Shown in pieces: positions 4,463 through 62,256 of a DNA stretch of 64,000 nt. The number at the start of each line of letters is the position of its first letter. Position 1 is the first letter of the stretch. This stretch comes from Escherichia coli. Lineage in GTDB: Bacteria > Pseudomonadota > Gammaproteobacteria > Enterobacterales > Enterobacteriaceae. The stretch lies in NCBI RefSeq assembly GCF_024502345.1, contig NZ_JALDNN010000001.1; one strand, written 5' to 3'. The notes below the pieces were generated by a model that saw only the letters and a program-made list of their open reading frames with translations, was not told where the DNA came from and did not search any database. A program made the position numbers and the translations under genes.

Positions 4463-5089
4463 TTATTTTTTCTCGGACAGATATTTCACTGTATCAGCAT
4501 ACTGCTTAACAAAAACATCCATATTGCTGGTATCCATACCCTGCGGATTCAGCTGATATTTACCGTTAACAAACATCGCCGGAACGCCACGCAATTGCAC
4601 GTCAGCTGCAGCTTTTTCCTGCTGAGCGACCAGAGATTTGACCACGAAGCTGTTCCACGCCGCGTCGTACTCTTCACCTTTAATACCTGCGTTGATAAAT
4701 ACATCGCGGATATCAGATGCTGAACGAATGGTCTGGGTTTTCTGTACGCCTTCAAACAGCGGAACAGTGACTTTGTCTTCCACGCCCAGCGCCATCGCCA
4801 CAGCCCATGCCTGAGTCAGATCTTTGCCCAGGTCACCACCCATGAAGTCGACGTGGTATTTAGTCATCTTCACGCCTTCCGGCAGTTTTTTCTTCACATT
4901 ATCAGAAATATGCAGAACTTCTTCAAACTGATAGCAGTGCGGACAGAAGAAAGAGAAAAACTCCAGCACTTGCGGCGCGCCAGCTACCGGTTTTTCCAGG
5001 GTAGTGTACTGTTTACCATCTTCATACTGCGCCGCCGATGCGCTAAACGCTAAAACTAAACCAGCCAGCGCCAGCCAAATCTTTTTCAT
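4463..5089 (-). CDS. dsbA: periplasmic thiol:disulfide oxidoreductase DsbA
   Basis: 208 aa, signal peptide, CPHC active-site motif ([12 protein letters not shown]). Confidence 0.95.
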
Positions 5090-28534: not shown

Positions 28535-29290
28535 TCAGAACTTATAACCACGATGCAGCGCCACAACCCCTGCCGTCAGATTGTAGTAGTCGACACTTTC
28601 GAATCCGGCATCCTGCATCATGGCTTTCAGGGTATCCTGATCGGGATGCATACGGATGGATTCTGCCAGATAACGGTAGCTGTCGGCGTCGTTCGCGACC
28701 AGTGAGCCAATACGCGGCAGCACATGGAAGGAGTATGCATCATAGGCTTTGCTCAGCGGCTCGATAATTGGCTTCGAGAACTCAAGCACCAGCAGGCGGC
28801 CGCCGGGTTTCAGCACGCGATACATTGAACGCAGTGCTTTATCTTTGTCGGTGACGTTACGCAGACCAAACGAAATGGTGATGCAATCAAAGGTGTTATC
28901 CGGGAACGGCAGCGCCTCAGCGTTCGCCTGAACATACTCAACGTTGCCAATCACACCGATATTACGCAGCTTCTCGCGGCCCATTTTGAGCATGGATTCA
29001 TTGATATCAGCAAGGACCACTTTGCCAGTTTCTCCGACCAGGCGGGAGAATTTCGCTGTCAGGTCGCCGGTGCCACCAGCCAGATCCAGCACGGTCTGCC
29101 CACGGCGTACGCCGCTGCAATCAATCGTGAATCGCTTCCACAAACGATGAATACCAAATGACATCAAATCATTCATGACATCGTATTTTGATGCCACGGA
29201 ATGGAAAACGTGGGCGACCATATCCGCTTTTTGTTCCTTCGCGACGGTCTGAAAACCAAAGTGCGTCGTTTCTTGTGACTTATCCACCAT
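28535..29290 (-). CDS. ubiE: ubiquinone/menaquinone C-methyltransferase UbiE
   Basis: 251 aa, SAM-binding motif LDLAGGTGD. Confidence 0.95.
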
Positions 29291-29384
29291 CTCAATGCCT
29301 GCTCATCAAAAAATTGTTCCAGAAGTGTAACAGATTGGGCGTCGATGCCCTAGATTTCTACCCGGCTTAACTACTCCCAATGGG

Positions 29385-30812
29385 CTAGCGCGACTGCTGA
29401 TTATATTCATCATCGCGTTGATAAGCTTCATCATTCGGCTGCTCCGGAACCGACCGAAGTCGATACTCTTCATCCTGGCTCACCGCCTGTTCAGCCAAAT
29501 CCGGATTAATCTCGCGTTTAATTTCTACTCCTAAACCGCGAAACGCTTCTGCCTGCGCCAGCACATTTCCGCGACCTGAAGAGAGTTTTTTCATTGCCTG
29601 GCGGTAGTTATCCTGCGCTTTGTCGAGACTTTGACCAATCGCTGACATGTCATCGATGAACAAACGCATCTTGTCGTACAGCTTGCTGGCACGATCGGCG
29701 ATTTGCTGGGCGTTGCGGCTTTGATGCTCATAACGCCACAGGTTGGCGATAGTGCGCAGCGCCACCAGCAGCGTAGTCGGGCTAACCAGCATGATATTGT
29801 TTTTCAACGCTTCGGTGATCAGCTCCGGCTGGCGGTCAAGCGCCAGTAAAAAAGCGGGTTCAACGGGAATAAACATCAGCACGTAATCCAGAGTTCGCAG
29901 CCCCGGCAGCTGTTGATAATCTTTGCGTCCCAGCAAACGGATATGGTTACGCACCGACGCGATATGTTCCTGTAGCGCGCTTTCGCGGGTGTAGTCGTCT
30001 TCGGCGTTAAAATAGCGTTCATAGGCGACCAGCGTCATTTTGGCGTCGATCACCACATCTTTTCCCTGCGGCAGCCGCACGATGACATCCGGCTGCATCC
30101 GCGAGCGGGCGTCATTTTCGATGCTGACCTGGGTTTCATATTCATACCCTTCACGCAGACCGGAAGCCTCCAGCACCCGCGTCAATACTACCTCGCCCCA
30201 GTTGCCCTGGGTTTTATTGTCGCCTTTCAGCGCGCGCGTCAGGTTGATCGCTTCCTGGGCCATTTGCGCGTTGAGTTGCTGGAGATTGCGAATTTCGTGG
30301 GTCAGGGTATGGCGTTCTTGTGCTTCTTTACCGAAGCTGTCCTGAACCTGACGGCGGAAACCGTCCAGTTGTTCACGTAGCGGCGACAACAGGCTGTTCA
30401 GACTCTGACGGTTTTGCTCATCAACCCGGCGATTGCTGTGCTCAAAAATACGGTTGGCGAGGTTTTCAAACTGCTCACTGAGGCGCTGCTCGCTGTTAAT
30501 CATCTGGCGAATTTTATCGTCAGCATGTTGCTGTGCGGCTTCCATCCGCGTGGTTACTTCACGCAGATCGGCCTCCAGAGAGGTGTTAATACTTTGCAGG
30601 CTGCGCACTTCGTTATTGAGTAACTCGCACTCTGCACGCCAGTGCTCGCTTTGGGTAATTTGTTGTTTTGCCGCGCTTAACTCCGCGACCATCTCTTCAC
30701 GTTCAGCTAATTGCTCGGCTTTTTGCTGCGCATGTTGATAACTGGCAAACAGCCAGCCAATTGCCACACCCACCAACGCAATAACTGCGTAAACCATGAT
30801 TGAGAAATCCAC
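29385..30812 (-). CDS. rmuC: DNA recombination protein RmuC
   Basis: 475 aa, N-terminal TM then coiled coil. Confidence 0.9.
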   Translation of the reverse strand: MDFSIMVYAVIALVGVAIGWLFASYQHAQQKAEQLAEREEMVAELSAAKQQITQSEHWRAECELLNNEVRSLQSINTSLEADLREVTTRMEAAQQHADDKIRQMINSEQRLSEQFENLANRIFEHSNRRVDEQNRQSLNSLLSPLREQLDGFRRQVQDSFGKEAQERHTLTHEIRNLQQLNAQMAQEAINLTRALKGDNKTQGNWGEVVLTRVLEASGLREGYEYETQVSIENDARSRMQPDVIVRLPQGKDVVIDAKMTLVAYERYFNAEDDYTRESALQEHIASVRNHIRLLGRKDYQQLPGLRTLDYVLMFIPVEPAFLLALDRQPELITEALKNNIMLVSPTTLLVALRTIANLWRYEHQSRNAQQIADRASKLYDKMRLFIDDMSAIGQSLDKAQDNYRQAMKKLSSGRGNVLAQAEAFRGLGVEIKREINPDLAEQAVSQDEEYRLRSVPEQPNDEAYQRDDEYNQQSR

Positions 30813-30952
30813 AACGCCTCCTGACGCAACAACTTACCCGCACAAAATAGAATTGTGCTGTACAAACGTCCAGTTGGAAAGGCATTTCCTGCGAGGCGCT
30901 ACGCAAAAATACAAAAGGCCGAACGCGTCGGCCTTCAGACAGGAGAAGAGAA

Positions 30953-31714
30953 TTACAGCAGACGACGCGCCGCTTCCACCACGATTTTCACCGCTTGGCT
31001 TTCAGTTTGTTTCATCGTCTCAGCATTCGGGATCTCTTGCTGGGTGCGGTTAACGATAACACCCGCTACCATACCGGCACGCAGGCCCTGACTTGCACAC
31101 ATGGTCAGCAGGGTTGCAGATTCCATTTCATAGTTCATTACGCCCATCGCCTGCCACTCTTCCATAGAACCTTTAAAGTGACGAACTACGCGACCAGAGT
31201 AAGTATCGTAACGTTCCTGACCTGGGTAGAAGGTATCAGAAGAAGCTGTCACGCCAACGTGAGTTGTCGCGCCAATGGATTTCGCAGCTTCAACCAGCGC
31301 AGTCGTACATTCGAAATCAGCGACAGCCGGGAATTCCAGCGGTGCGAAGTGCAGGCTCGCGCCATCCAGACGGACAGACGCCGTGGTAACCAGGACATCA
31401 CCCACATTAATATGCGGCTGAATAGCGCCCGTTGTACCGATACGCAGGAAGGTGCGAATGCCCAGCTGTGCCAGCTCTTCAACAGCAATAGAGGTAGACG
31501 GGCCGCCGATACCGGTAGAGCAGACGATAACAGGTTTACCATCCAGCTCTGCACGCCAGGTAGTGAATTCGCGGTGAGATGCCAGCTTAACCGGCTTATC
31601 CATCAGCGCGGCGATCTTTTCCACACGATCCGGGTCGCCAGGGACGATGGCAAGCGTAGCCCCTTGTAAATCGTTTTTAGTGAGGCCGAGATGAAAAACA
31701 TCAGACTTGGACAT
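30953..31714 (-). CDS. udp: uridine phosphorylase
   Basis: ORF 30953..31720; the start is [13 protein letters not shown] at 31714 (253 aa). Confidence 0.95.
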
Positions 31715-31975
31715 ATACAACTCCTCTGTGAATCGGTTTAGTCAGAAGAAGCAAAAAGACACTTTACCGAAGGGTTTAACATTTTTTCGTGATACTCATC
31801 ACCATGACGCAAATGCGTTGCATAAATTTACCCACCAAAAGTGATGCAAATCACATAAATCACTCTTCATTCTGCAGGACTGCATAAAAGATGAGCCGAT
31901 TCAGGCAATGTGATTTGTTGCATGCTGACTATAGTTAACATTGCGCAACATTTTTATAAGGGTACGGAGAATACC

Positions 31976-32788
31976 ATGGCAACAACACAACAATCTGGAT
32001 TTGCACCTGCTGCATCGCCTCTCGCTTCGACCATCGTTCAGACCCCGGACGACGCGATTGTGGCGGGCTTCACCTCTATCCCTTCACAAGGGGATAACAT
32101 GCCTGCTTACCATGCCAGACCAAAGCAAAGCGATGGCCCACTGCCAGTGGTCATTGTAGTGCAGGAAATTTTTGGCGTGCATGAACATATCCGCGACATT
32201 TGTCGCCGTCTGGCGCTGGAGGGGTATCTGGCTATCGCACCTGAACTTTACTTCCGCGAAGGCGATCCGAATGATTTTGCCGATATCCCCACGTTGCTTA
32301 GCGGTCTGGTAGCAAAAGTGCCTGACTCGCAGGTGCTGGCCGATCTCGATCATGTCGCCAGTTGGGCTTCCCGCAACGGCGGCGATGTTCATCGTTTAAT
32401 GATCACCGGATTCTGCTGGGGTGGACGTATCACCTGGCTGTATGCCGCGCATAATCCACAGCTAAAAGCCGCAGTGGCGTGGTACGGCAAACTGACGGGC
32501 GACAAGTCGTTGAATTCACCGAAACAACCTGTTGATATCGCAACCGATCTTAACGCGCCGGTTCTCGGCTTATATGGCGGTCTGGATAACAGTATTCCGC
32601 AGGAGAGCGTTGAAACCATGCGCCAGGCGCTGCGGGCTGCTAATGCGAAAGCAGAGATTATCGTGTACCCGGATGCCGGGCATGCATTCAACGCTGATTA
32701 TCGCCCGAGCTATCATGCCGAATCTGCGAAAGATGGCTGGCAGCGTATGCTGGAATGGTTTAAGCAGTATGGTGGGAAGCGGAGTTAG
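31976..32788 (+). CDS. ysgA: dienelactone hydrolase-family protein YsgA
   Basis: ORF 31910..32788; the start is MATTQQSGF at 31976; alpha/beta hydrolase motif GFCWGG. Confidence 0.85.
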   Translation: MATTQQSGFAPAASPLASTIVQTPDDAIVAGFTSIPSQGDNMPAYHARPKQSDGPLPVVIVVQEIFGVHEHIRDICRRLALEGYLAIAPELYFREGDPNDFADIPTLLSGLVAKVPDSQVLADLDHVASWASRNGGDVHRLMITGFCWGGRITWLYAAHNPQLKAAVAWYGKLTGDKSLNSPKQPVDIATDLNAPVLGLYGGLDNSIPQESVETMRQALRAANAKAEIIVYPDAGHAFNADYRPSYHAESAKDGWQRMLEWFKQYGGKRS

Positions 32789-33181
32789 TTTCCTCTTAGT
32801 CTATATTTGAGATGGTGAGTGAACGAGTGCGTTTTGCTGCCATCTCTGTCCCCCAAAAAATAATCAGTATGAATTGATTGGAGATTACGACTCCGCTATT
32901 TGACCTTAAAAAAGTCGGCAAGTCATAGTCATAAATGAGTCTCTTCAATGGAAGACACCTTAGAGATTTACCATCAACTCCCATTCACAAACAAACATTA
33001 ATTATTATCAACACATTCACATTAATTATAAATCATCTCAGACCTTCCTGATAAAAAGATATTAAAGTGAAACATTTTGTTTTTCACATTTTAGTTCATC
33101 ACTTTTAGGCGTAAATAAAGGTAAAAAAAACAACAATACTATTTCTCTTTCACAAAAGAATTAACAAAAGGTTTTTCAAGG

Positions 33182-33657
33182 ATGAGTGATATTATTTACC
33201 TGACCATAACCGGAGAACAACAAGGATGTATTTCCTCTCGTTGTGGAACGAGCGCATCAATAGGTAATCGCTGGCAGATTGGCCATGATGATGAAATCTT
33301 CGCGTTCTCGCTCTCTAATAGTATTACGAATACAGGCAAAGGGTCATAATTGCATGGCCTTAGTTTCTGTAAATTGATTGACAAAAGCTCCCCGTTACTT
33401 ATTAACGCTATTAACAATAACGAGCAGTTGTTCATGGAGTTTGACTTCTATCGGATCAATAGGTTTGGTCGATGGGAGAAATATTACAACATTCAACTCC
33501 GCGGCGCGCTCTTATCAGCAATCAATCACCTGTTTACTGAGAACAATCTGGATACAGAAGCCATCACTGTCAGTTATGAATATATACTCTCCAGGCATCT
33601 GATTGCTAATACTGAATTTAGTTATTTGGCATTTCCCGATAACTACAACCGTCTGTT
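33182..33657 (+). pseudogene. Hcp-family (T6SS tube protein) domain, N-terminal part of a disrupted Hcp-fused toxin gene
   Basis: ATG at 33182 gives MSDIIYLTITGEQQG...; the frame hits TAA at 33347-33349 and resumes in the same frame with the Hcp-like stretch FCKLIDKSSPLL. The reading frame then runs into the IS903 end at 33658. Confidence 0.7.
33649..33657. repeat. IS903 target-site duplication, left copy (CCGTCTGTT)
   Basis: The identical 9-mer recurs at 34715-34723, immediately outside the two inverted repeats. Confidence 0.9.
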
Positions 33658-34714
33658 GGCTTTGTTGAATAAATCGAACTTTTGCTGAGTTGAAGGATCA
33701 GATCACGTATCTTCCCGACAACGCAGACCGTTCCGTGGCAAAGCAAAAGTTCAAAATCACCAACTGGCCCACCTACAATAAAGCCCTCATCAACCGTGGC
33801 TCCATAACTTTCTGGCTGGATGATGAAGCTATTCAGGCCTGGTATGAGTCAGCAACACCTTCTTCACGAGGCAGACCTCAGCGCTATTCTGACCTTGCCA
33901 TCACGACTGTGCTGGTCATTAAACGCGTATTCAGGCTGACCCTGCGCGCTGCGCAGGGCTTTATTGATTCCATTTTTTCTCTGATGAACGTTCCGCTACG
34001 CTGCCCGGATTACAGCTGTGTCAGCAGGCGGGCAAAGTCGGTTAATGTCAGTTTCAAAACGCCCACCCGGGGTGAAATCGCACACCTGGTAATTGATTCC
34101 ACCGGGCTGAAGGTCTTCGGTGAAGGCGAGTGGAAAGTCAAAAAGCATGGCCAGGAACGCCGCCGTATCTGGCGTAAGCTGCATCTCGCCGTTGACAGTA
34201 AAACACATGAAATCATCTGCGCTGACCTGTCGCTGAACAACGTTACGGACTCAGAGGCCTTCCCCGGGTTAATCCGGCAAACCCACCGGAAAATCAGGTC
34301 AGCCGCCGCCGATGGCGCTTACGATACCCGGCTATGTCACGATGAACTGCGGCGTAAGAAAATCAGCGCGCTTATCCCTCCCCGAAAAGGTGCGGGTTAC
34401 TGGCCCGGTGAATATGCAGACCGTAACCGTGCAGTGGCTAATCAGCGAATGACCGGGAGTAATGCGCGGTGGAAATGGACAACAGATTACAACCGTCGCT
34501 CGATAGCGGAAACGGCGATGTACCGGGTAAAACAGCTGTTCGGGGGTTCACTGACACTGCGTGACTACGATGGTCAGGTTGCAGAGGCTATGGCCCTGGT
34601 ACGAGCGCTGAACAAAATGACGAAAGCAGGTATGCCTGAAAGCGTGCGTATTGCCTGAAAACACAACCCGCTACGGGGGAGACTTACCCGAAATCTGATT
34701 TATTCAACAAAGCC
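33658..34714 (+). mobile_element. IS903-type insertion sequence (IS5 family), 1057 bp
   Basis: Terminal 18-bp inverted repeats GGCTTTGTTGAATAAATC (33658-33675, and reverse complement at 34697-34714); internal 322-aa ORF; flanked by a 9-bp direct repeat. Confidence 0.9.
33690..34658 (+). CDS. IS903-type DDE transposase
   Basis: 322-aa ORF matching my recollection of the IS903/IS102 transposase. Confidence 0.85.
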   Translation: MKDQITYLPDNADRSVAKQKFKITNWPTYNKALINRGSITFWLDDEAIQAWYESATPSSRGRPQRYSDLAITTVLVIKRVFRLTLRAAQGFIDSIFSLMNVPLRCPDYSCVSRRAKSVNVSFKTPTRGEIAHLVIDSTGLKVFGEGEWKVKKHGQERRRIWRKLHLAVDSKTHEIICADLSLNNVTDSEAFPGLIRQTHRKIRSAAADGAYDTRLCHDELRRKKISALIPPRKGAGYWPGEYADRNRAVANQRMTGSNARWKWTTDYNRRSIAETAMYRVKQLFGGSLTLRDYDGQVAEAMALVRALNKMTKAGMPESVRIA

Positions 34715-34723
34715 CCGTCTGTT
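34715..34723. repeat. IS903 target-site duplication, right copy (CCGTCTGTT)
   Basis: Exact 9-bp match to 33649-33657. Confidence 0.9.
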
Positions 34724-34753
34724 TATACCACGGCCAAAAACTAAAGCTGGTAA

Positions 34754-35395
34754 TGGTTCAAAACACTTAATAGTAAAGCGGTTGGCAGACTGCTTGCTGC
34801 TGGCGGCATATACAATGGGAATATCGAAGGATTCAGGGAAACAGCAGACAAGTTGGGGGGAGATGCACCTGCTGGTTACGATCAATTTATGGATAACAAA
34901 GGGTTACTCATCGCTGGTGCTTCAATAGTTGCTGGAGCAGTTCTGGGGAGAATGAGACTCCCTGATTTGGAATCACTTGAGCATTTCGGAGCCAGAGGAG
35001 CAGTATCAGGAAGACCATTTAATCCCGACCTTGCCGGTGGTCCAATAGAAAATCTGACGACAGATGGCGTAACAATCAACAGGGAAGGTATCGCTATTGT
35101 TGAAAAACACATAGCCAGATTTGGTCATGACCCTGTAAATGAAGTGATGATCAATAGACTGAAAGACATTGAGAAAGGAAAAATCCCCCCAGAACAAGTA
35201 GATCTTAACTTCTATACTCATGAGTGTCGGGAATATCAGCGTTACTGTAATCTTGGTTGGGAAACAGGACAACCTGATGGTGACGCAGGCTATGCACTCT
35301 GGAATCATACGCATACTGCTACTCTAGAAGATTATAAACTTAAGGGAGAACTTAATGACTTATACCACCAGGATGCACTTGACTATGATAACTGA
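34754..35395 (+). pseudogene. toxin-like C-terminal domain of the disrupted Hcp-fused gene (family not identified)
   Basis: Open frame of 213 codons after a stop at 34751; no ATG near its 5' end (the ORF track uses TTG at 34853). It begins with a Gly/Ala-rich linker (GRLLAAGGIYNGNIEGF...DKLGGDAPAGYDQF). It is in a different frame from the pre-insertion Hcp frame. Confidence 0.5.
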
Positions 35396-35630
35396 AACTG
35401 AAATTAACGTACTGAAAGTTATGGCTGAGAAAGATATAAACTGGAACTGGATGAATCTCGATCGCACACTATCCATAAGGCAAATTCCAGGATTCGGTAA
35501 TGTTGTTAACATTGTTAACAAATTAGCTAACGAGGGTTTGGTTATTATTGAGGATAGCGGACATAAGTCTATGCCTCACTACCACGTTACTGAAAAGGGA
35601 TACAATTTCGTGAAAAGTGAGAATAAATAA
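35355..35630 (+). CDS. putative cognate immunity protein (small cytoplasmic protein)
   Basis: 91-aa ORF with AAGGGAGAA Shine-Dalgarno 6 bp upstream of the ATG at 35355; overlaps the 3' end of the toxin-like ORF (alternative ATG at 35385 overlaps its TGA). Confidence 0.5.
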   Translation: MTYTTRMHLTMITETEINVLKVMAEKDINWNWMNLDRTLSIRQIPGFGNVVNIVNKLANEGLVIIEDSGHKSMPHYHVTEKGYNFVKSENK

Positions 35631-35777
35631 CGTAGCGTTGATTACTGAACAAATCGCTCAGGATTATATTTTGCGTAAAAATGATTCGGTTATTTCTGTA
35701 TCTGAACGGGCGCAGATAGCAAAATGGCTTCCGGTGATGGAAGCCATCAGATTATTGGCAAAGTGCGCGTTGTTCAT

Positions 35778-35818
35778 GCCGGATGCGGCGTGAACGCCTT
35801 GTCCGGCCAACAAAACTC
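35778..35818. repeat. REP element
   Basis: gccggatgcggcgtgaacgccttgtccggcc. Confidence 0.7.
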
Positions 35819-35914
35819 AAAAATTCAATAAATTGCATAAATTATGTAGGCCTGGTATCAGGCAGTTTTGCCTCTTTCATCGTACTGCAATTTACAGTGA
35901 CTCGTTAATATTCA

Positions 35915-38176
35915 TCATCCCCGACGCAAATTCTGCGCCGCCTGCACCATGTTCGCCAGTGCCGCGCGGGTTTCTGGCCAGCCGCGCGTTTTCAGGCCAC
36001 AGTCCGGGTTGACCCACAGGCGCTCTGCCGGAATGCGTTTTGCCGCTTTCTTCAGCAAGGCTTCAATCCATTCCACGCTCGGTACGTTTGGCGAGTGAAT
36101 GTCATAGACGCCTGGACCGATTTCATTCGGATAATCAAACTCTTCAAACGACTCCAGCAACTCCATGTCGGAACGCGAGGTTTCGATGGTGATGACGTCT
36201 GCATCCAGTGCCGCAATCGAATCCATGATGTCGTTGAACTCGCAATAACACATGTGAGTGTGGATTTGTGTGTCATCTTTCGCCACGGCGGCGTTGATAC
36301 GGAAGGCCTCCACGCCCCACTGGAGATATGCATCCCAGTCGCTACGACGCAGCGGTAAACCTTCGCGCAGCGCCGGTTCATCAATCTGGATGATGCCAAT
36401 TCCTGCGGCTTCCAGGTCCGCCACTTCATCACGCAGCGCCAGCGCAATTTGTTTGGCGATGGTTTCACGGCTGACATCTTCACGCGGGAACGACCAGCAG
36501 AGAATGGTCACCGGGCCAGTCAGCATCCCTTTCACCGGTTTATCAGTCAGAGATTGCGCATACTTCGCCCACTCCACGGTAATCGGTGCCGGGCGGCTAA
36601 TGTCACCAATGACAATCGGTGGCTTCACGCAGCGGGAACCGTAGCTCTGTACCCAACCGTTTTGCGTAAAGACAAATCCGTCGAGGTGCTCGCCAAAGTA
36701 TTCCACCATGTCATTACGCTCGGCCTCGCCATGTACCAGCACATCCAGTCCCAAACGTTCCTGTTCAACAATGGCCTGCTTGATATGTTCCGCAATGCCC
36801 GTGCGGTAGTTGTTGGCGTCGAGATTACCCTTTTTGAAATCCAGACGCAGGGTACGAATTTCCGTGGTTTGCGGGAAGGAACCAATCGTGGTGGTCGGCC
36901 ACGCTGGCAGTTTAAAACGCGCACGCTGGGCTTCGGCACGCACTTCATAGACATTCGCACGCTGGCTGTCCTGGGCGGTGATCGCCGCCAGACGCTTTTC
37001 TACTGCCGGGTTATGTACACGAGTAGAGTGACGACGCGCCTGAATTGGAGCGCTCCACTCTGCCAGAGCTGCCGTATCACCACTGTTCAGCGCATCTCGC
37101 AGCAGTGCCAGTTCATGACATTTTTGCAGGGCGAAGGCAAACCAGCTTTTCACTTCTGCATCAAGACGCGTTTCCACGCTCAGGTCGATGGGGCTGTGCA
37201 GCAACGAGCAGGAAGATGCCACCCACAAATCACGTTTGCCGACAATGTCCTTAATTTGCGCATATTTCTCAGTAAGATCGGCGCGCCAGACGTTACGACC
37301 ATTGATCAGACCCGCAGACAGCAGCCAGTCAGAAGGCAGGCGCTTGTGCAGTTCAACAACGTCATCTTTACCATGTACAAGGTCCACATGCAGCCCCTGA
37401 ACAGGCAGCGCAGTAATCGTGTCGAGATTTGGCGTTACGCCTTCAAAATAGGTGGTCAGCAGCAGTTTCACCTGTCCCTGGAGCGCGTCGTAAGCGGGTT
37501 TGTATGCGTCCAGCCACGCCTGTGGTAGTTCCAGTACCAGCGCGGGTTCATCAATCTGTACCCACTCGATGCCGCGTTTCGCCAGTTCTGCCAGCACTTG
37601 CTGATAAACCGGCAGAATGTCGTTCAGCAGGCTAAGGCGGTCAAACTGTTCACCTTTCACTTTCCCCAGCCACAGGTAAGTAACCGGCCCCAGCAGCACA
37701 GGCTTAACGTTGTGGCCCAGCGCCAGCGCCTCGTCCACTTCCTCCAGCAGCTGCGTCCAGGTCAGTTTGAACTGTTGGCCTTTAACGAACTCCGGCACCA
37801 TGTAGTGATAGTTGGTGTTAAACCATTTGGTCATTTCCGCTGCCGCCGCAGGTTCGCCAGTCGGCGCACGTCCACGACCAATACGGAACAGGGTGTCGAT
37901 ATCTACCGAACCGTCTTTGTTCTGATGACGTGGCGGAACATTACCCAGCAGCAAACTGGTGGTCAGTACATGATCGTACCAGGCAAAATCGCCCACCGGC
38001 AGCAGGTCGATACCCGCTTGCTTTTGTTGATCCCAGTGACGAGCACGCAGTTCACGCCCTACTGTCAGCAGTTCTTCACGCGTGGAGTTCCCCGCCCAAT
38101 AACTTTCTTGCGCTTTTTTCAGCTCGCGACGCAGGCCAACGCGAGGGAAACCGAGGGTGTGATTCAATATTGTCAT
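35915..38176 (-). CDS. metE: cobalamin-independent methionine synthase
   Basis: 753 aa, begins [30 protein letters not shown]. Confidence 0.95.
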
Positions 38177-49218: not shown

Positions 49219-49233
49219 GGTAATGACTCCAAC

Positions 49234-49737
49234 TTATTGATAGTGTTTTATGTTCAGATAATGCCCGATGACTTTGTCATGCAGCTCCACCGATTTTGAG
49301 AACGACAGCGACTTCCGTCCCAGCCGTGCCAGGTGCTGCCTCAGATTCAGGTTATGCCGCTCAATTCGCTGCGTATATCGCTTGCTGATTACGTGCAGCT
49401 TTCCCTTCAGGCGGGATTCATACAGCGGCCAGCCATCCGTCATCCATATCACCACGTCAAAGGGTGACAGCAGGCTCATAAGACGCCCCAGCGTCGCCAT
49501 AGTGCGTTCACCGAATACGTGCGCAACAACCGTCTTCCGGAGCCTGTCATACGCGTAAAACAGCCAGCGCTGGCGCGATTTAGCCCCGACGTATCCCCAC
49601 TGTTCGTCCATTTCCGCGCAGACGATGACGTCACTGCCCGGCTGTATGCGCGAGGTTACCGACTGCGGCCTGAGTTTTTTAAATGGCGGAAAATCGTGTT
49701 GAGGCCAACGCCCATAATGCGGGCGGTTGCCCGGCAT
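49234..49737 (-). CDS. insB: IS1 transposase InsB reading frame
   Basis: 167 aa, begins [16 protein letters not shown]. Confidence 0.9.
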
Positions 49738-49931
49738 CCAACGCCATTCATGGCCATATCAATGATTTTCTGGTGCGTACCGGGTTGAGAAGCGGTGTAA
49801 GTGAACTGCAGTTGCCATGTTTTACGGCAGTGAGAGCAGAGATAGCGCTGATGTCCGGCGGTGCTTTTGCCGTTACGCACCACCCCGTCAGTAGCTGAAC
49901 AGGAGGGACAGCTGATAGAAACAGAAGCCAC
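49656..49931 (-). CDS. insA: IS1 InsA
   Basis: 91 aa, begins [42 protein letters not shown]. Confidence 0.9.
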
Positions 49932-49986
49932 TGGAGCACCTCAAAAACACCATCATACACTAAATCAGTAAGTTGGCAGCATCACC

Positions 49987-49995
49987 CTCAAATTG
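49987..49995. repeat. IS1 target-site duplication, right copy (CTCAAATTG)
   Basis: Exact match to 49210-49218. Confidence 0.9.
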
Positions 49996-59428: not shown

Positions 59429-60937
59429 GTGATCAACACCTCGCGCCAGGATGGCTTTATGCACTATCGCAATGTGGTTTGTTTGTTGGCTTGTTCATTG
59501 TTCTTATCGTCGGCATGGGGATGTCGGCTTGATGCACCTGAACATAATATTTACCAGAAACAGGGAAAAGGCGTGGTGTACCTGCGCCCTTATAAAGAAA
59601 CAAATCTTTCTCTACCTGACGTGAATTACAAGAGTTTGCGCCGTTTACCCAATTTATTAATAGACCCAACAACACAAGATGAATGGACTAAAGAACCACC
59701 TCTGACTGATCTAACAACCGACTACCTCTATGAAGGCGCACAAGCCTGGTATCCTCATTACTCCTGGCATAGCGATGGCCGCAATATCCTCTACGCGGGT
59801 GAAGTTGTGCAAAACCCGCCAGACAAACCTCCCGTCGATGTCGCCTCGTTCAAGGCATGAGGTGATTTTGCCGCAGATAAACACAGTCTCTATTTCGAAG
59901 GCAAGCGCACTGATGACAATGGTGGGGGAAATAGCGTAGATATCAAAACACTGCATCAGGTGGAATTCCGGCCTCCCTGGGATCCTGACTTACTGGGGCT
60001 GATATTACGTGACGCTAATTTCTTATATGTCGATGGGCATCGCCTCGCTGACCCCGAGAGTTTCCGTGTGCTGGCACAAAAGTCATGGGATCAAAGAGGA
60101 AAGTTTTCTACCGCGTTTAATCCCTGTGTGGCTATGCCATTTGGCCCCTGGGATACCCTGGCTCGTACAAGAACCAAAATCCTGATCAACGGCGAACAGC
60201 TTGATGCCGACCCGGACACTTTTTCCGTCGTGCGCTGGATGCCCGGCTCACTCTTGACCTGGCGTGATAAAAACGGGCTGCAGCGTAAAGTCCTCGACAA
60301 GGAAAATCTGGCGTGGGATGAAGATTTAACAAAGCACTGTCTGGATTTTTCTCTGCTGGAAAAGAAAGTGTTCTGGCGTCAGGGGCCTGACTGTAAACAG
60401 GAAGAATTACCGGGACTCGATCCGGAACAGTTTCACCCCATCAGTGATGCTGTCGCACAGTATCAGGACTCGCTTTATACCATCATCGAAACAGAGTCTG
60501 GTGACCGCAAGCTGGAGATCGTGAAACTTGATGATCCCAATCTTATTATCAACAAACGTTTCAACGCCGGGAAACGCCACGGCTATTTACTTACGCGTGC
60601 CGAAGGGTGGCCATACCATTCCGGTTTACACGTGTTTGAATCTGACGGACCGCTGATCTTACTGGATAACCGCTCTCCGGATGAACGCGAAGCCCATCTT
60701 AATGACCATCCCTTTTTGCGCAGATGGTATGCCCGCGATAACCGCTACGTTTACAGCTTTGATGGCGCGCAGCTCTGGCGATACCGCACCGCTGATCCGA
60801 AACAAGTTCGCTTAATCTGGAAGGAACAACATTCGGGATATGGCTACGGGGTAAATTACAAAACGGGATATCTGGACGGAAAAATTACCGATGACGGCGA
60901 ATTTATTCCTGCCCCGCGCAATGAGGCGACAAAATGA
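59429..60937 (+). pseudogene. secreted repeat protein (DKNYY-like repeats by eye), split by an in-frame TGA at 59858-59860
   Basis: ORFs 59429..59860 and 59960..60937 are in the same frame with only the one TGA between them; the joined product is paralogous to the downstream 440-aa ORF. Confidence 0.6.
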
Positions 60938-62256
60938 AGGGTCAAATAATCACAGTTGCACTCATCCTGTTGGGGCACACATGTCTGACACCTGCTGTAC
61001 AGGCCATAGGGTTCGACTATTACAATGATCACGGTGTTATGTCTTACGGTAAAGGTTATGGGGAGGATGAGAAAATCATTGCCCAATTTCCGAAGATGAA
61101 CAGAGCCGATTTGCGCCTTGTGACAAATATATCCGGGGAGCGGGAGTTAGTGGAAGGCTATATACCCACTGATGAAATAAGCATAAAAAATGAGGAATAC
61201 TACTGGGTGACAGACGGCCGCGTTATTCTCTGGCGTGGCAAAATCGTTAGCAATCCACCGGGAATACCCACTGTCGATATTGCCAGCTTTCAGGCTATGG
61301 GCCGCTTCGCGGTCGATAAATATAGCCTCTATTTTGATGGACAGCGCACCGAAAGTAATAGCGGCGCGTCACGTGTTGATCTGGCGACACTAAAAGCTAT
61401 CGAAGGTAACTCTACCACGCTGGTGGATAGTAAAAATCTCTATTTGTCCGGTCGACGTCAGGGGAGCAGCAGTAATGTTACTGTATTAGAAAAAAGATGG
61501 TGGGGTATTAATCCACGTCTTATGAGTGTAAACAGAAATTTGTATTCCAATGATCTGCTTATCCGCAGTGGGCAGAATATTTATTTAAATGGCGTTCACC
61601 TTACGGCGAATGCAGACTCATTTGAGATAATTCGCTGGATACCTCATTCACTGCTGGTTTTTCGCGACAACAATGGTCTGCATCGTTATCCCTTTGGGCA
61701 ATTATCTGGCAAAGCGATACCCGTAGATGATGACGTCTCTTTTGAAGTGGGGGAAAGTCGCGTTCGCTGGCGTAAACAGCTCTCGCCCGACCGTCAGTGG
61801 AGCAAGTGGATAGACCTACCGGATATTGAACCTGAACAATTTCATCTGATTACTGGCAATATTGCGCAGTATAAAGATCGTCTGTATGTAACAAAATTAT
61901 CGACTTTTGGTGAAGACCAGCTTGAAATAATTCCGCTGGATTCGCCAGACCTGGTCATTGATAACTCATTTAATGGCGGCAAACAACATGTTTACTTTAT
62001 CCGCCAATTACGGTCAAAGAGCGTGCAAATTATTCCAGTTAACGGCCCGCTAATTAAAAACGATCGCTTCGCTTATGACGATCGCAATGTTTATACCTGG
62101 ACCGATACAGAGGTCAGGATTACGCCATCCCCCTGTCCGGCGAAAACACGCGTCAGAGAAGAGAATGTGCGTGAACTTCACAACAGAGACATTATTATTC
62201 CGTTGACGGATGAATCATGCCAGAACGCAGCAGACGAGCAAACTTTGAAGCCCTGA
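60934..62256 (+). CDS. secreted repeat protein, paralogue of the upstream gene (DKNYY-like repeats by eye)
   Basis: 440 aa; Sec-type signal peptide MKGQIITVALILLGHTCLTPAVQA; start overlaps the upstream stop (ATGA). Confidence 0.6.
   Translation: MKGQIITVALILLGHTCLTPAVQAIGFDYYNDHGVMSYGKGYGEDEKIIAQFPKMNRADLRLVTNISGERELVEGYIPTDEISIKNEEYYWVTDGRVILWRGKIVSNPPGIPTVDIASFQAMGRFAVDKYSLYFDGQRTESNSGASRVDLATLKAIEGNSTTLVDSKNLYLSGRRQGSSSNVTVLEKRWWGINPRLMSVNRNLYSNDLLIRSGQNIYLNGVHLTANADSFEIIRWIPHSLLVFRDNNGLHRYPFGQLSGKAIPVDDDVSFEVGESRVRWRKQLSPDRQWSKWIDLPDIEPEQFHLITGNIAQYKDRLYVTKLSTFGEDQLEIIPLDSPDLVIDNSFNGGKQHVYFIRQLRSKSVQIIPVNGPLIKNDRFAYDDRNVYTWTDTEVRITPSPCPAKTRVREENVRELHNRDIIIPLTDESCQNAADEQTLKP

Follow-up and report, generated by a model that had tools for sequence, protein, structure and literature searches.

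An inherited nonsense codon within the Hcp domain of a decaying orphan Hcp-toxin fusion gene between ysgA and metE of Escherichia coli

Hcp effectors with C-terminal extension toxins (Hcp-ETs) are Hcp proteins that carry a toxin as a C-terminal extension and are accompanied by downstream immunity genes (Ma et al. 2017, as summarised in PMC6730261 and PMC6099711). Here we analyse a gene of this kind in a 64,000-nucleotide stretch of Escherichia coli DNA (contig NZ_JALDNN010000001.1 of assembly GCF_024502345.1; hereafter ‘the window’), in which an in-frame TAA interrupts the Hcp-coding part. The gene is an orphan Hcp-toxin fusion (Hcp-ET, tssD-toxin) that E. coli and Shigella carry in a low-GC accessory island flanked by ysgA and metE. 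Similarly to the described Hcp-ETs, the window locus combines an N-terminal Hcp/TssD domain with a C-terminal toxin extension and a small gene directly downstream; it is likewise an orphan locus of the Enterobacteriaceae, located outside a type VI secretion system (T6SS) cluster, with polymorphic tips on a constant Hcp and linker. Unlike the described Hcp-ETs, the window copy is a pseudogene. The TAA almost certainly arose by a genuine nonsense mutation of Gln56 (CAA to TAA) that has been inherited vertically, in a decaying Hcp-ET gene.

The frame that opens with ATG at 33182 on the plus strand contains 55 sense codons (MSDIIYLTITGEQQG...NTGKGS) before it meets the TAA of codon 56 at 33347–33349, and past this stop the unchanged frame reads LHGLSFCKLIDKSSPLL... 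as far as 33688; translation thus bears out the original prediction, which had described a stop in this frame followed by an Hcp-like stretch. With the stop replaced by X, the NCBIfam profile TIGR03344 (TssD/Hcp) yields one unbroken match to the window translation, spanning residues 1–147 and profile positions 1–161 of 167 (E 4e-37; 127.7 bits, the cut-off being 58.9), which places the gene in the family by profile. Pfam PF05638 matches the part of the translation that follows the stop (profile positions 51–125 of 129) and gives 52.7 bits with the intact orthologue (cut-off 23.5), and the PDB Hcp chains 6a2v and 3he1 match at E 1e-14 and 1e-12, respectively. Since the TIGR03344 match is unbroken and PF05638 matches after the stop, the TAA is located inside the Hcp domain, as had been proposed, and both of its sides belong to one frame. 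An uninterrupted frame for a full Hcp protomer is absent from the window: the gene is broken by the TAA at codon 56, by the insertion sequence (IS) IS903 at codon 159 and by a frameshift at codon 170. The single nonsense codon of the original prediction is real, but it is not the sole lesion. The window gene is a pseudogene of the Hcp/TssD family and not a working member of it.

Aligning the gene with intact homologues, as had been suggested together with the prediction, identified CAA (Gln56) as the ancestral codon. Codon 56 is CAA in the intact gene of strain A30 and in ATCC 25922, and TAA in the window and in FDAARGOS_943; the TAA is a defined substitution relative to the orthologues, a single C to T change at 33347, and no chance pattern. 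This agrees with one of the two explanations initially offered, namely an independent inactivating mutation, the change being separate from both IS903 and the frameshift. Over 1389 nt, with the IS excluded, the window differs from A30 tssD by seven substitutions (the nonsense mutation included) and one 1-bp deletion, the divergence between the pseudogene and the intact allele being approximately 0.5%. The 5′ part of the pseudogene is 100% identical to the tssD pseudogene of FDAARGOS_943 and 99.2% identical to intact A30 tssD. The description of the stop as lying in the middle of a conserved domain holds for the domain but not for the residue: position 56 is variable, being Q, H or N in homologues from Citrobacter and Salmonella, even though it is in mid-domain. 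A conserved Gln at this position was accordingly dropped; Gln56 aligns with the Arg of the Hcp sequence ‘GQRVH’.

We assessed the spread of the allele by exact matching of a 61-base query centred on the codon against complete E. coli genomes. The TAA version was matched exactly in 15 of the 839 genomes that have the gene, with no exact match in the remaining 824, and the CAA version was matched exactly in 311 complete E. coli genomes. Nine of the 15 TAA genomes are O121 or O121:H19 strains of E. coli that produce Shiga toxin (STEC), judged by their serotype label or strain name, and the others include FDAARGOS_943, FDAARGOS_944, NCTC9064, the O103 strain ML775 and a horse isolate. In the public protein collection, the exact 55-residue truncated product is found on at least 1000 contigs (2490 index blocks), the sources of which include E. 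coli, Shigella sonnei, S. boydii and S. flexneri. NCBI annotates the gene in the relatives as a pseudogene with the remark ‘internal stop’ or ‘frameshifted; internal stop’. The TAA mutation is, therefore, inherited and widespread and not private to the window genome; it is an ordinary pseudogene lesion that was already known, in the sense that the gene is flagged as a pseudogene in relatives.

The second lesion of the window copy is a 1057-bp IS903 element of the IS5 family (33658–34714, plus strand), recognised by its inverted repeats, its Pfam matches and its similarity to annotated IS903B copies. Its perfect 18-bp terminal inverted repeats (GGCTTTGTTGAATAAATC; 33658–33675 and 34697–34714) are the only two matches to this sequence in the window, its transposase open reading frame (ORF, 33690–34658) matches Pfam DDE_Tnp_1_5 and DDE_Tnp_1, and the element is 98–99.7% identical to copies annotated as ‘IS5-like element IS903B family transposase’. 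It shares the size, the 18-bp repeats, the 9-bp duplication and the DDE transposase with IS903/IS903B, and differs from them in nothing notable. The element interrupts the gene behind nt 476, within codon 159, and is flanked by a 9-bp target-site duplication found by repeat search (CCGTCTGTT; left copy 33649–33657, right copy 34715–34723), a sequence that is single in genomes without IS903. When IS903 and one of the duplicates are removed, the window aligns end to end with the A30 gene. The 5′ part of the pseudogene accordingly occupies 33182–33657 (plus strand; gene nt 1–476, codons 1–159) and holds the Hcp domain, and the 3′ part, delimited by alignment to A30, occupies 34724–35395 (plus strand; gene nt 477–1149) and holds the linker and the toxin tip. 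The third lesion, a deletion of one T (TTT to TT) at 34757–34758 on the plus strand (gene nt 510–512, codon 170), shifts the frame. An out-of-frame remnant ORF of 180 codons (34853–35395) still encodes the whole toxin tip, and the equivalent fragment in FDAARGOS_943 is annotated as ‘colicin’ by NCBI.

Comparison with relatives identifies the newest of these lesions. The closest relative found was FDAARGOS_943, which at this locus differs from the window by a single mismatch over 3890 nt to the left and by two over 2577 nt to the right. The tssD pseudogenes of FDAARGOS_943, LR536431 and the O121 strain RM8352 occupy the same locus, have the same TAA and are labelled ‘internal stop’ by NCBI; FDAARGOS_943 and LR536431, but not RM8352, also share the 1-bp deletion of the window and are flagged ‘frameshifted’. 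The window adds IS903 inside the gene; in FDAARGOS_943 an IS1 lies upstream of the gene instead. The stop and the deletion occur together without IS903 in FDAARGOS_943, LR536431 and comparison locus L012, and the IS903 junction was absent from all complete E. coli genomes searched; therefore, IS903 is the newest lesion. The hybrid ORF products created by the insertion were not found in the public protein collection either, and as far as the searched collections show, the insertion is private to the window genome. The 1-bp deletion is present in three further genomes that lack the TAA, and is in these either recombinant or recurrent.

The same locus has been broken independently in other lineages. 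The O121/S. sonnei-type haplotype that shares the TAA (loci L008, i.e. O121 RM8352, L009 and L010–L018) has a second stop, E133* (GAA to TAA). The nine loci L010–L018, at least three of which (CP023645, CP022457 and CP019689) we take to be S. sonnei, additionally have their toxin part interrupted by a 1331-bp IS that is flanked by a 5-bp duplication; from its size, its duplication and its end sequence, this element is presumably IS2-like. ATCC 25922 has a B2-type allele with W98* (TGG to TAG) at codon 98 (position 4468 of locus L003), and an exact match to the 61-mer with this stop occurs in 257 complete E. coli genomes, among them Nissle 1917, ATCC 25922 itself and the type strain ATCC 11775. 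The copy in HCP4S3_I4 carries an IS3-family insertion, and a 22-bp deletion is a further lesion seen outside the window lineage.

Downstream of the toxin gene, and overlapping its end, is an intact ORF of 81 codons (35385–35630, plus strand), which is the presumed cognate immunity gene by virtue of its position. Its DNA is 100% identical to that of the gene beside the intact A30 toxin (WP_000627421.1). The ORF is intact in all 15 of the comparison loci that fully cover it, V12I being the sole change (in eight of the loci L010–L018), and in most of the comparison loci with the intact ORF the toxin gene is broken, which fits retention of an orphan immunity gene. Apart from a weak winged-helix-like match (E 0.023), the 81-codon ORF has no family match. 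In ATCC 25922 a second small ORF (L003 5639–5883), located past the strain’s own immunity gene, is 94% identical to the immunity gene of the window, which points to orphan immunity genes being arrayed at the locus.

In the reading that we favour, translation from ATG 33182 would end after 55 residues and, this being too short for the Hcp fold, the window copy would yield no tube-competent, toxin-carrying protein. The base after the stop is T, and TAAT is the strongest and most efficient termination context in E. coli. Decay would then have gone on, with the 1-bp deletion at codon 170 arising in a sub-lineage and IS903 inserting at codon 159 in the window genome alone, while the downstream immunity gene would have stayed intact. 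Several considerations count against this reading. The loss of function of the gene is predicted from its sequence. A TTG codon at 33350 directly adjoins the stop and has a weak AAGGG six bases upstream, and a truncated fragment may be re-initiated there; such a fragment would be devoid of the N-terminal strands and would run into IS903. Neutral decay, which we regard as the probable cause, is inseparable from selection: the 1149-nt toxin gene has acquired seven independent lesions, and the 246-nt immunity gene none.

The last of these points leads to the strongest alternative, according to which inactivation was adaptive: loss of the toxin with the immunity gene kept would have been selected, e.g. 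once the T6SS had been lost or silenced or because self-intoxication was avoided, and the nonsense allele would have swept. At least seven independent disrupting events across lineages, two common nonsense alleles (W98*, seen in 257 complete genomes, and Q56*, seen in Shigella and O121) and an immunity gene that is intact in every locus covering it all speak for such selection. Against it, the excess of lesions in the toxin gene is not significant given the lengths of the two genes and the youth of the pseudogene, as approximately 1.2 lesions would be expected in the immunity gene and the probability of finding none is approximately 0.3 by our own calculation. Furthermore, many genomes appear to keep intact alleles, as exemplified by the 311 exact matches to the CAA 61-mer. 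The lesion counts being too small, selection for toxin loss or immunity retention is unproven, and we consider adaptive inactivation of this copy unlikely, if well short of negligible. The same tentative standing applies to the broader proposal that toxin loss with immunity kept has been selected repeatedly at the ysgA–metE Hcp-ET locus across E. coli and Shigella, making it a hotspot, for which the relevant lesions are Q56*, E133*, W98*, the 22-bp and 1-bp deletions, IS903, the 1331-bp IS and the IS3-family insertion.

It is far less probable, to the point of being hardly tenable, that the stop is part of a programmed recoding event or of a functional split gene, i.e. that it is read through, or that the 55-residue peptide is made alongside a fragment started at TTG 33350. 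The position of this TTG right after the stop, the Shine–Dalgarno-like AAGGG and the wide distribution of the TAA allele are what such a scheme could draw upon. However, 824 of the 839 genomes have no exact match to the TAA 61-mer and 311 match the CAA 61-mer exactly, so the stop is not a conserved feature of the gene, and the downstream frame is not constrained: the frameshift and the IS in the window, as well as E133* in the sister haplotype, mean that nothing preserves it. No recoding signal is evident, TAAT is generally known as a strong terminator, and a fragment starting at residue 57 would be missing about a third of the Hcp domain. Readthrough was ruled out as a candidate on the grounds that the stop is missing from orthologues and the frame beyond it is disrupted. 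A sequencing or assembly error, the other explanation initially offered, with C as the true base at 33347 and no stop, has next to no likelihood: although an error could give rise to a change of one base relative to the intact allele, the site is not a homopolymer, the whole 5′ part is identical to FDAARGOS_943, and the error is refuted by the TAA allele being present in many independent assemblies, with the same T in 15 independently finished genomes and the 55-residue product on at least 1000 contigs, which come from many laboratories and bear many species labels.

The inherited nonsense mutation thus sits in a gene whose intact form is provided by A30. The A30 orthologue is 382 residues long; its Hcp domain covers residues 6–135 according to Pfam and 1–147 according to TIGR03344, and is followed by approximately 235 residues that comprise a linker with a hydrophobic stretch and then a C-terminal domain. 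Judged from its sequence, the intact orthologue therefore has the C-terminal extension with a putative toxin domain that characterises Hcp-ETs. A gene called tssD by NCBI is present at the locus in approximately 840 of 5426 complete E. coli genomes, and the tip of the window gene is found in only 77 complete genomes. In sister alleles, other tips are joined to an unchanged Hcp and linker, P0085 having a tip with a weak HNH match (13,190 member sequences) and P0059 one that is Gln_amidase/papain-like; therefore, the locus is polymorphic in its toxin. The window has the gene order of an E. coli/Shigella chromosome, rmuC–udp–ysgA–[island]–metE–metR, and the GC content of the island (34–46%, with 34–44% over 33000–33500 and 35000–36000) compares with 51–56% in the flanking core genes, which is consistent with horizontally acquired DNA.

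The toxin tip, defined as the C-terminal 146 residues of the intact A30 protein (approximately residues 237–382), has no sequence or profile match in Pfam, NCBIfam or the PDB and matches none of the five clan domains tested; NCBI nevertheless names fragments of it ‘colicin’ or ‘HNH endonuclease’. When 1.84 billion representatives were searched in full with HMMER, 469 clusters of tip homologues were returned at E ≤ 1e-3, and in nearly all of the best 150 of these 469 matches the tip is at or near the C-terminus. The proteins that carry it include Rhs, SpvB/TcdB-type, LysM-containing and Hcp proteins as well as proteins of 5000 residues. The tip has invariant His, Glu, Arg and Trp residues (H52, R55, H89, E93, R96, W116 and H120 in the numbering of the 146-residue tip). 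AlphaFold with a shallow alignment gave an unusable model (predicted local distance difference test, pLDDT, 50), and supplying 43 diverse tips as the alignment resulted in a confident helical model (pLDDT 93.2; predicted template modelling score, pTM, 0.86), for which no structural match was found in the PDB. The tip thus belongs to a putative polymorphic-toxin domain that is widespread but unclassified, and its predicted helical fold has no solved relative. This result leaves the verdict on the TAA unchanged.

For annotation, our results mean that the gene should be recorded as a single tssD/Hcp-ET pseudogene with three lesions, and not as two or three small genes, and that the adjoining ORF of 81 codons is best retained as a probable orphan immunity gene. 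The biological weight of the finding is small, as accessory toxin genes often decay. The recurrent knock-outs, which span major lineages including Nissle 1917, ATCC 25922, O121:H19 and the S. sonnei type, may merit a specialist’s time, and so may the unclassified toxin tip domain.

Further differences between the window and FDAARGOS_943 were observed outside the Hcp-ET gene. A 769-bp IS1 copy at 49219–49987, which shares 99% identity with the FDAARGOS_943 IS1A and seems to be flanked by a 9-bp target duplication, is intergenic, near the corA-fragment and YPO3983-family genes, and is absent from this position in FDAARGOS_943. A 2.5-kb segment at 59616–62182, with ORFs at 59960–60937 (no Pfam match) and 60934–62256 (DKNYY family), is likewise absent from FDAARGOS_943, which has only a DKNYY pseudogene remnant there. 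Identity between the two genomes is approximately 99.95% over 29210–37300, as compared with 98.5–98.8% from approximately 37300 rightward, a drop that points to a boundary of recombination in or near metE/metR.
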